Of a stretch of 64,000 nt of DNA, positions 5,180-16,369 are shown in pieces; positions within the stretch are counted from its first letter, which is position 1, and each line of letters starts with the position of its first letter. The stretch is from assembly GCF_000027125.1 (NCBI RefSeq), contig NC_017626.1; one strand, given 5' to 3'. This DNA is from Escherichia coli 042. GTDB lineage: Bacteria > Pseudomonadota > Gammaproteobacteria > Enterobacterales > Enterobacteriaceae. The notes beneath the pieces are model-generated. The model saw only the letters and a list, made by a program, of their open reading frames with translations, was not told where the DNA came from and did not search any database. The translations under genes were made by a program, and so were the position numbers.

Positions 5180-6063
5180 GCTTCCTCGGTTGTCGTCTGT
5201 TGTTGCGGATTTTTCACCGCACGCACATGCTCTTCCAGTTCAATAAACGATGGACGTTCGCTGGAATAGAGCGTTTTGCGACCAAACTCAACGGCGATAG
5301 GCGGTGCGTAACCGTTCAGATTAGAAAGCAGTGTGACTTTGACGCACTGCATCATTTTGCTGGTTTCGGCGCTTTTCTGACGTAAAACACTCGCTAATGG
5401 GGAAATAAATCCGTAAGCCAATAAAATACCGAGGAAAGTCCCCACCATCGCATGTGCGATAAGCGCCCCCAGCTCGGCGGCAGGACGATCGGCTGAACCT
5501 AACGCGTGAACGACCCCCATCACAGCCGCGACAATACCAAACGCCGGAAGTGAGTCCCCGACCAGCGCCAGACTGTTCGCCGGGACTTCTGCCTCGCTTT
5601 CGTGCGTCTCAATCTCTTCATCCATCAGGGCTTCGATTTCGAAGGTGTTCATGTGACCGCTGATAATCAGACGCAGATAATCGACGATAAAATCAAGCAT
5701 GACGCTATCCGCAAGGATGCGTGGGTAGCTGGCGAAGATCTCGCTCTCACGGGGATTTTCAATATCACGTTCCAGCGAAAACATCCCCATCTGCCGCGAT
5801 TTCGCCATCAACCGATAAAGCAGAGCCAGCAGATCCATATACATTGCTTTGGTATATTTGGAGCGACGAAACAGCAACGGCAGCGCCTTCAGCGTACCTT
5901 TAATCGCTTTGCCATTATTGCCGACGATAAACGACCCAATCCCTGCACCGGCAATAATCACCAGTTCAGCGGGTTGATAGAGTGCTCCAAGGCTTCCACC
6001 GGTCATCAAATAACCGCCGAAAACTGTACCGAGAACAACCAGGTAACCTAATAAGATAAGCAC
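5176..6063 (-). CDS. motA: flagellar motor stator protein MotA
   Basis: 295-aa [26 protein letters not shown]... recognised as MotA. Confidence 0.97.
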
Positions 6064-6130
6064 GACATCATCCTTCCACTGTTGACCATGACAGGATGTT
6101 CAGCCGTCAGACGTTAACGCGCGATTGGGG

Positions 6131-6163
6131 CAAAAAAAGCAGCGGTACGTCGTTACCGCTGCT
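6131..6163 (-). terminator. Rho-independent terminator downstream of flhC
   Basis: Reverse strand hairpin AGCAGCGGTAACGACGTACCGCTGCT followed by TTTTTTT, between the flhC stop and motA. Confidence 0.55.
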
Positions 6164-6188
6164 GGAATGTTTCGCCACACCGTATCAG

Positions 6189-6767
6189 TTAAACAGCCTG
6201 TACTCTCTGTTCATCCAGCAGTTGTGGGATAATATCGGCAGGATTCTGGGAAAGTTTACGTCTTTTTACTGCCCGGGATGGCGGCTGACATAAGCTGCAG
6301 GCAAAGCTGCCAACAGGCTGGTGAGCGTGGGTAATAAAATTGCCGCCGCAGCAGTTGCAGCTGGAAAGTTGCAGTAATCCACTTTCAACAAACCGCACCA
6401 ATGTCCAGGCACGGGTTAATGCCAGCAGCGGTCCGTCTTCTGGTTGCGGGCACTGTTCAAGGTATAAACGGTAGGCTTTGATCACCGCATCGACGCCATT
6501 ACACAAACCGGTTTTCAGTAAAAACTGCCATGCGTTACAGAACATCGAAGCATGAACGTTTTGTTCCCAGGTCATAAACCAGTCGGTTGAGAATGGCAGC
6601 ATGCCTTTCGGCGGTGGGCTTCCGCGCAGTTCTTTATAGAGTTTTATCAGGCGTCCGCGGCTTAACTGTGTTTCGCTTTCCAGCATCTGCAAACGAGCGC
6701 CCAGGGTGATCAATTCCATTGCCAGCTGAATATCCCGCGCTTTCTGAACAATGCTTTTTTCACTCAT
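6189..6767 (-). CDS. flhC: flagellar master regulator subunit FlhC
   Basis: 192-aa [30 protein letters not shown]... with the C-terminal Cys cluster, recognised as FlhC. Confidence 0.97.
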
Positions 6768-6769
6768 GA

Positions 6770-7120
6770 TCAGGCCCTTTTCTTGCGCAGCGCTTCTTCA
6801 GGCTGATTAACATCATTCAGCAAGCGTGTTGAGAGCATGATGCCGGTATGAATTTGCTGGAGATCGTCAACGCGGGAATCTTGCGTCAACTGAGTAATCG
6901 TCTGGTGGCTGTCAAAACGAAAGTGACAAACCAGTTGATTGGTTTCTGCCAGCTTAACCATTTGCGGAAGAGTCAGTGCCGCTAACGTTGTCGCCATTTC
7001 TTCATTTATGCCGAGACGAAACATTGCGGACGCTTTGTCCTGAACAATCAGACGCTGTGCAAGTAGTAAATATGACAAGTTGATGTCATAAATGTGTTTC
7101 AGCAACTCGGAGGTATGCAT
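6770..7120 (-). CDS. flhD: flagellar master regulator subunit FlhD
   Basis: ORF-track frame [27 protein letters not shown]...; start trimmed to MHTSELL (116 aa). Confidence 0.93.
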
Positions 7121-7900
7121 TATTCCCACCCAGAATAACCAACTTTATTTTTATGCGGTCTCACCGCACCCCGTGATGTCGCCGGGAAGCCCCGGTAAAA
7201 AATAATTAGCATTAGAATAGTTGCGATAAGCTGCAACAGGCAGAGCCCCTTTTTTGGATTTAATAAGTCCTCACAAATAGAAGGGGCTCTTTACACTTAT
7301 CTAAGATTTTTCCTAAATCGACGCAACTGTACTCGTCACTACACGCACATACAACGGAGGGGGGCTGCGATTTTCAATAATGTGTGATGCAGATCACACA
7401 AAACACTCAATTACTTAACATAAATGTATAAGTCATACTTTTGTTTTGGGTGTATTTCAATCTGTTAAAAAGTTTTTCGCAACGCTAGCAAGCAAAAATG
7501 AAACAGGAATAATCGAAATGGGATGTTGCGCACAGTTAAAATAACTCACCGTAAATAATCATCTGCTATAAATAATCACTTTCATGCAATACCAGATAAG
7601 CTATTTTTAAACAGACACTTACCGCACAACAAACTAATTAAATACAAAGAAAGGCAACAATCAACTTAATGTTAATAAAATGTTTTACATATATTAACCA
7701 CTTGTTTAATATGGAGAATCAGTACATTATTTTCTTATAATTACAGTTGAAATCATATGATCACCGAGAGTGATTGATTAATTGTCTTTACTAATAATCA
7801 GACTAATATTTACCTGTTTGACTGAGTTGGGATTGCGTCGTTTCTCCATTAGGAGTAAAGCTTTAATGTCACCTGAAGTTCACAGAATAAGGAACAGGTT
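7121..7900. promoter_or_regulatory. long AT-rich divergent control region: flhDC class 1 promoter and 5' UTR on the reverse strand, uspC promoter on the forward strand
   Basis: About 780 bp non-coding AT-rich spacer between the divergent flhD and uspC starts; no ORF of 60 aa or more. Confidence 0.6.
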
Positions 7901-8329
7901 ATGAGCTATAGCAATATTCTTGTCGCCGTTGCGGTTACACCGGAAAGTCAGCAACTGCTGGCAAAAGCGGTATCTATCGCCAGGCCAGTAAAGGGACACA
8001 TCAGTTTAATTACTCTCGCGTCCGACCCGGAAATGTACAATCAATTAGCTGCGCCGATGCTTGAAGATTTACGCAGCGTGATGCAGGAAGAAACGCAAAG
8101 CTTTCTTGATAAGTTAATTCAGGATGCGGGGTATCCCGTTGACAAGACGTTTATTGCCTACGGTGAGTTAAGCGAACATATTCTGGAAGTTTGTCGCAAA
8201 TATCATTTCGATTTGGTGATTTGCGGTAATCACAATCACAGTTTCTTTTCGCGAGCATCCTGCTCGGCGAAAAGAGTGATTGCCTCAAGTGAGGTCGATG
8301 TGCTGTTAGTTCCACTTACGGGAGATTAA
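7901..8329 (+). CDS. uspC: universal stress protein C
   Basis: 142-aa ORF MSYSNILVAVAVTPESQQLLAKAVSIARP... recognised as UspC. Confidence 0.93.
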   Translation: MSYSNILVAVAVTPESQQLLAKAVSIARPVKGHISLITLASDPEMYNQLAAPMLEDLRSVMQEETQSFLDKLIQDAGYPVDKTFIAYGELSEHILEVCRKYHFDLVICGNHNHSFFSRASCSAKRVIASSEVDVLLVPLTGD

Positions 8330-8335
8330 CCGCAC

Positions 8336-11688
<3,353 letters not shown>

Positions 11689-16108: not shown

Positions 16109-16369
16109 CGCGGCACTCCGACTATTTGTTATGCAGGTGTTATTGTCTTTGCGCTTATAATATGACAACCATCACAAAAATCAATCTTTATGTGATGTAA
16201 ATCACACAAATACCTCTTTAATGTTATAAAAATGATAATCAAAAAGCAGCCCCCCCTTTCTGACACATACAGATGGCAAGAAATAGCGCCTGCCAGGCGT
16301 CTTTTCCGGCCATTGTCGCAGCGCTGTAGCGCGTAAAATACTGCTTTCTTTTACTCTTCTGGCTGGACC

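Follow-up and report, generated by a model that had tools for sequence, protein, structure and literature searches.

The promoter of flhDC is controlled by CRP, OmpR, LrhA, H-NS, RcsAB and a number of other regulators, and transcription starts about 198 nt upstream of flhD (PMC9600491, PMC5493358, PMC3946378). In Salmonella, an RcsB site has been placed 11 bp downstream of P1 (PMC3946378). A paper from 2022 introduced an antisense RNA, AsflhD, which is transcribed from the strand opposite flhD and begins 22 nt into the gene; its promoter has an extended -10, RNase III processes the transcript, and flhD is repressed by it (PMC9600491). Much of the interest in the region stems from the insertion sequence (IS) elements found there. 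When IS1, IS5 or other elements are inserted upstream of the promoter, both the expression of flhDC and motility increase, and a thyA cassette placed at the same positions has the same effect (PMC4183435), showing that the effect of an IS is largely independent of the sequence inserted. For instance, an IS5 copy 516 bp upstream of the flhD ATG renders BW25113 hypermotile and acid-sensitive (PMC11237407). The sites used by IS5 coincide with zones that are destabilised by supercoiling and are also bound by many repressors (PMC5493358), and a wastewater clade of E. coli carries IS30 in the spacer between flhDC and uspC (PMC5007776). The literature already covers the locus and its regulators, as well as the antisense RNA and the status of the region as an IS hotspot; the only points at which the stretch described here goes beyond the textbook are a rare leader allele, and a spacer whose length and AT content, but not sequence, are kept across genera.

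The 64,000-nt stretch of E. coli DNA that was analysed (hereafter the window) contains, at positions 7121-7900, a spacer of 780 bp that runs from the start codon of flhD to the start codon of uspC. The left border is the flhD coding sequence on the minus strand (6770..7120, with the ATG at 7120), which encodes a protein of 116 aa, beginning MHTSELLKH, that is 100% identical to K-12 FlhD. The right border is the uspC coding sequence on the plus strand (7901..8329, with the ATG at 7901), the product of which is 97.9% identical to K-12 UspC. Both open reading frames (ORFs) are annotated as such in a strain that is 100% identical over the 780 bp, E. coli O158:H23 CFIAFB20140388, the chromosome of which has the same genes and a flhD-uspC gap that is devoid of annotation. 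The spacer therefore sits between divergently oriented genes, in the order motB-motA-flhC-flhD <-> uspC-otsA-otsB-araH, and the ORF list holds none longer than 40 aa inside 7121-7900. The GC content of the spacer is 0.353, as opposed to 0.499 for the whole window, and falls to 0.282 in 7400-7800; only 1.4% of all 780-bp windows have a GC content as low as that of the spacer. The lowest value for any 780-bp stretch, 0.319, is found not here but at ~61731-62510, which also holds one perfect CRP palindrome.

Taken together, we regard 7121-7900 as the wild-type, insertion-free control region of flhDC (minus strand) and uspC (plus strand), working as it does in K-12 and Salmonella, and assign this reading a probability of about 95%, as none of the results speaks against it. 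The original prediction, which had named the interval as an AT-rich flhDC control region of 780 bp, proves to be right on the basis of the gene borders, exact to the base, the flanking genes and the GC content. Two further statements in it, that the spacer is an integration point for many flagellar regulators and that it is a known hotspot for IS insertion, agree with the regulator list in PMC5493358 and with the insertions reported in PMC11237407, PMC5493358, PMC4183435 and PMC5007776, respectively. One point that it did not contain is that the spacer serves the divergent uspC as well. A candidate uspC promoter (TGGAGA-18-TATAAT, 7712..7741, plus strand) was picked out by consensus match; its position is plausible, but with three promoter-like sites found against 4.7 expected the match is not significant. 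Promoter-like sites in general were at or below the number expected by chance, and a terminator scan returned none.

The state of the spacer with respect to IS elements is most readily seen by comparison with K-12 MG1655, in which flhD and uspC are separated by 1,555 bp that include an annotated IS1H of 768 bp. Removal of IS1H and of one of the two copies of the 8-bp duplicated sequence CATAAATG leaves 779 bp, and the window aligns end to end with this IS-stripped sequence, from which it differs by 20 substitutions and three indels of 1-2 bp; nine of the 20 substitutions and all three indels fall in the leader. The site that is occupied by IS1H in MG1655 is empty in the window, where CATAAATG is present as a single copy (7419..7426) rather than as duplicated flanks. 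Consistent with this, a search that allowed up to 3 mismatches found no IS1 terminal repeat anywhere in the window and no IS5 terminal repeat in 7121-7900, the two IS5 matches far outside the interval being at chance level, and none of the five ORFs of at least 30 aa has a Pfam match to a transposase. Thus, the marks of an IS-activated flhDC allele (terminal repeats, transposase and target-site duplication) are absent and the 780 bp equal the IS-free length, whereas colinearity and high identity with other E. coli, with no extra DNA, are what is found for a wild-type, IS-free region. Potential targets are present: 16 YTAR tetranucleotides, the target of IS5, lie in 7320-7900, and one of them, CTAA at 7634, corresponds to the reported IS5 site 516 bp upstream of the flhD ATG.

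How common the uninterrupted state is was asked of 5,426 complete E. coli genomes, of which 5,421 match the 780-bp spacer and 5,271 do so with at least 80% coverage in one place. The full-length query is unreliable for interrupted genomes, since the search joins pieces across a gap the size of IS1. For this reason a 481-bp core (7320-7800), in which any IS splits the match, was used instead. The core is found with at least 80% coverage in one place in 5,283 of the 5,426 genomes, and is split into two places in up to 171 of the 5,419 genomes with a match (~3%), which among the matches listed include the laboratory K-12 derivatives MG1655 and NEB10-beta. An IS-free spacer is therefore present in ~97% of complete genomes and, as the same holds in other genera, the uninterrupted state is the rule and not a peculiarity of one strain. 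The original prediction had seen no IS element in the spacer, and the K-12 alignment, the genome matches, the search for IS1 and IS5 ends and the Pfam results, with no transposase fragment, all bear this out; its added remark that the strain carries the uninterrupted arrangement is correct as to the absence of an IS, but it distinguishes no strain, given that ~97% of genomes are alike. A few genomes match the spacer only in part, among them an EV36 mutant (positions 291-780), strain E05 (560-780) and ECONIH5 (the first 76 bp of the core only), a pattern that points to deletion or extensive rearrangement rather than to the simple insertion of an IS.

Three other readings of the spacer have to be weighed, two of which concern its origin. 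Insertions of IS1, IS5, IS30 and ISEc33 are on record for this hotspot, and some imperfect inverted repeats are seen in its AT-rich DNA, so that an earlier insertion might have left a hidden remnant in it, whether an IS scar, a solo terminal repeat or a target duplication that stayed behind. Such a remnant is difficult to reconcile with a base-for-base alignment to IS-free alleles in which the indels are only 1-2 bp, with the single copy of the K-12 IS1 target, with the absence of IS1 and IS5 ends (up to 3 mismatches) and of a Pfam transposase from the interval, and with a spacer that is as long as in other genera; at the level of sequence this reading is already refuted, and the chance that it is correct is vanishingly small. 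A second reading, in which the AT-rich block is horizontally acquired foreign DNA and not native regulatory DNA, has in its favour a GC content of 28-35% compared to 50% in the flanks. However, 5,421 of 5,426 E. coli genomes have the block at this very position, and the same two flanking genes, the same length and the same low GC content recur in 74 loci from other genera of the Enterobacteriaceae, such that an origin by acquisition is already refuted by synteny and can be given next to no credence.

The third reading concerns coding capacity, namely that the spacer encodes, besides AsflhD, a further small protein or small RNA that has so far gone undescribed, for instance a 38-codon upstream ORF (uORF). 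The interval contains four ORFs of 30-40 codons and is overlapped by another at 7092-7205 (plus strand); moreover, the stop codon of the leader uORF (7123-7236, minus strand) overlaps the flhD start as TAATG, an arrangement typical of translational coupling, and the ORF at 7782-7904 (plus strand) is open in three other Escherichia sequences. Conservation argues against each of them. In E. albertii and in a second E. coli the leader uORF has an in-frame stop and lacks a start codon; from genus to genus its frame changes, and most genera have AAA or CAA in place of its stop. It was rejected as coding on the grounds that neither frame, start nor stop is conserved. The ORFs at 7446-7544 (plus strand) and 7457-7549 (minus strand) are broken in close Escherichia relatives, and the ORF at 7782-7904 has no start in E. 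albertii, while in E. whittamii its frame is not kept; all three were likewise rejected, being unconserved and without a Pfam match. Pfam and Rfam gave no match in the interval, and the Rfam search of 6000-9000 (E <= 10) returned three eukaryotic families at chance level, the best with E = 2.4, all outside 7121-7900. We thus consider an additional product of this kind improbable, and return to the insertion-free control region of flhDC and uspC as the reading that the remaining features are to be fitted to.

AsflhD itself maps to 7099..7319 on the plus strand, spanning the flhD start and the whole of the leader (K-12 ncRNA b4839). Its extended -10 promoter lies inside flhD and is identical in sequence to that of K-12, as are the start and the 79 nt upstream of it, and the antisense RNA is therefore presumably expressed in the window strain too. 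The original prediction had warned of unannotated small RNAs or peptides in so long a leader; an antisense RNA does map here, but it is one that has been published and annotated in K-12, and the candidate peptides lack conservation even among Escherichia sequences. Outside the spacer, the sigma-28-dependent small RNA MotR (b4828) is expected at ~6131-6225 on the minus strand from the K-12 coordinate offset; in K-12 it overlaps the 3' end of flhC and the motA leader.

The elements that would drive flhDC transcription can be positioned from the K-12 start at 1,978,395, which equals the annotated 3' limit of AsflhD and corresponds, through the colinear alignment, to 7319 on the minus strand of the window. 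Read relative to this start, the P1 core promoter (7326..7354, minus strand) consists of a -10 hexamer TACAGT (7331-7326) and a -35 hexamer TTGTAT (7354-7349) separated by 17 nt. This stretch is identical to that of K-12, and the -35 block and the block of the -10 and start are kept across genera. Scans for CRP and RcsAB motifs, which the original prediction had proposed, recovered both sites. The CRP site TGTGATGCAGATCACA (7383..7398) is a perfect TGTGA-N6-TCACA palindrome centred 71.5 bp upstream of the start, and is one of three perfect matches in the window, where 0.07 are expected, the other two being at 16191-16206 and 61754-61769. The RcsAB box TAAGATTTTTCCTA (7302..7315) lies just downstream of the start, has 2 mismatches to the RcsAB consensus, and falls in the most conserved block of the spacer, with 95% conservation across genera. 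Thus, the sequences of P1, of a CRP site at -71.5 and of an RcsAB box downstream of the start are present and conserved, and binding of the two regulators is expected from the literature.

Both CRP half-sites are at least 90% conserved across genera, and the T at 7383, which makes the half-site TGTGA, is found in 12 of 13 E. coli alleles and is likewise at least 90% conserved across genera. The sole exception among these alleles is K-12, with CGTGA, which implies that the weaker and derived CRP site is that of the reference strain K-12 MG1655, and that the window strain keeps the ancestral consensus site that K-12 no longer has.

From 7319 the predicted transcript would begin with a 5' untranslated leader of 199 nt (7121..7319, minus strand), which is 198 nt in K-12. 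The leader contains a hairpin (7242..7290, minus strand) with a perfect 10-bp stem formed by AGAGCCCCUU and AAGGGGCUCU and a loop of 29 nt that includes a GGA. The hairpin was detected as an inverted repeat and is present in both the minimum-free-energy and the centroid folds; the remainder of a repeat search of the spacer gave only short matches of the kind typical of AT-rich DNA. Among 13 E. coli alleles the stem is perfect in the window allele only. In the other alleles one or two of its positions are mismatched or form wobbles, the changes being in part compensatory, and the GGA loop is retained; the closest relatives of the window (GN25 and MSB1_7A) have an A/C mismatch at a position where the window has a G-C pair. 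The GGA of the hairpin loop is presumably the second of the two CsrA sites reportedly described in Yakhnin 2013, the other presumably being the 5'-proximal GGA of the RNA. The 5'-proximal GGA belongs to the same conserved stretch as the RcsAB box.

Together with 7761-7800, the hairpin is also where E. coli alleles vary most densely within the spacer; in all, 64 of 780 sites vary among the window and 12 alleles from complete E. coli genomes. The window allele belongs to a rare or minor lineage of E. coli, as only 19 of 5,421 genomes are at least 99% identical to it over the 780 bp and only two, O158:H23 CFIAFB20140388 and NY1601, are 100% identical, while 5,388 genomes fall at 95-99%. That the leader allele is rare and its hairpin more stable is thus of some value in annotating the strain. 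With 20 substitutions and three indels relative to K-12, many of them in the leader, the quantitative behaviour of the region could differ from that of K-12, and the hairpin allele and the difference in the CRP site are plausible, if small, modulators of expression. A consensus RNA structure computed from 81 leaders contained just 6 pairs with essentially no covariation, an outcome attributable to conserved stems that are invariant and a variable middle that cannot be aligned.

A broader view of what is maintained comes from 80 flhD loci fetched from GTDB species representatives, 74 of which have uspC divergently upstream. In these 74 loci from other Enterobacteriaceae, the spacer has a median length of 792 bp (IQR 786-795), with 67 of the 74 within 770-815 bp, and a GC content of 34-43%, compared to 44-55% for the loci as wholes. 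The exceptions in length are one spacer of 525 bp (L066), one of 1001 bp (L006), and the Cedecea-like loci L069, L071, L073 and L077, at 937-938 bp, in which ~140 extra nt lie within the leader. The proximal leader (7121-7200, 80 nt) is 82-90% identical to the window across the 74 loci, and the block at 7301-7340, which contains the RcsAB box, the start and the -10, is 81-95% conserved; the remaining peaks of conservation are the -35 and the two CRP half-sites. The distal 480 bp, on the other hand, are 74-87% identical within Escherichia, but in Salmonella, Enterobacter, Leclercia, Kosakonia and others their similarity is no higher than that of shuffled sequence. The conserved footprints coincide with the regulator sites of the literature, and outside them it is the length and composition of the spacer, not the sequence, that are maintained.

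One possible explanation is that the distal half (~7400-7800) is selected for length and AT-richness rather than for sequence. We hold this to be doubtful, as the constancy of spacer length may be equal to what a low indel rate would give. If correct, selection of this kind would fit a physical role, for example as a scaffold for H-NS-type silencing, or as a supercoiling-sensitive and easily melted zone held at a fixed distance between the divergent promoters. A physical role would, in turn, explain why flhDC is activated by any insertion in the distal half, whatever its sequence. That length is kept across genera and sequence is not is a small observation, but one that is testable by researchers studying flhDC silencing.

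How the region would function in the window strain, with regard to binding, transcript ends and motility, can be predicted from the literature. A sigma-70 promoter starting at 7319 would be activated by CRP bound at 7383-7398, and would be repressed through the RcsAB box at 7302-7315 together with proteins bound to the AT-rich DNA further upstream. The AT-rich distal spacer (7400..7800, GC 28%) corresponds to the zone described in the literature as that of IS insertion and as the binding ground of repressors (PMC5493358). The 199-nt leader would be targeted by CsrA, by several Hfq-dependent small RNAs, and by the antisense AsflhD. As the promoter and the repressing DNA upstream of it are not separated by an IS, native repression of flhDC should be complete, and the strain would accordingly be expected to show lower motility on soft agar than laboratory strains that carry an IS.

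The locus can be set against three described systems. The first comprises the IS-activated alleles, namely those with IS1 or IS5 in laboratory K-12 and the uspC-IS30-flhDC arrangement of wastewater E. coli, which share the locus and the target tetranucleotides with the window but carry an insertion where the window has none. Another is the flhDC region of Salmonella enterica (promoters P1-P6; Mouslim & Hughes 2014, PMC3946378), which also lies in a divergent uspC-flhD spacer, of ~786 bp. As in the window, its P1 promoter is accompanied by a CRP site and, immediately past the start, by an RcsB site, and the proximal leader is conserved. The distal 480 bp of Salmonella, in contrast, are no closer to the window than shuffled sequence, and its additional promoters (P5, which is controlled by HilD) are not to be assumed in the window. 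The third is the K-12 MG1655 region (NC_000913.3, 1,978,198-1,979,752), which shares with the window the flanking genes, the core promoter sequence, the RcsAB box, the AsflhD promoter and the layout of the leader, and is 97% identical across the spacer once the IS is removed. It differs in the presence of IS1H, with an 8-bp duplication, where the window has an empty site (7419-7426), in having CGTGA for TGTGA in one CRP half-site, and in having a mismatch in the leader hairpin where the window allele pairs perfectly. For annotation, the value of the comparison is that flagellar control here should be native and fully repressible, unlike that of the reference K-12 MG1655 sequence.
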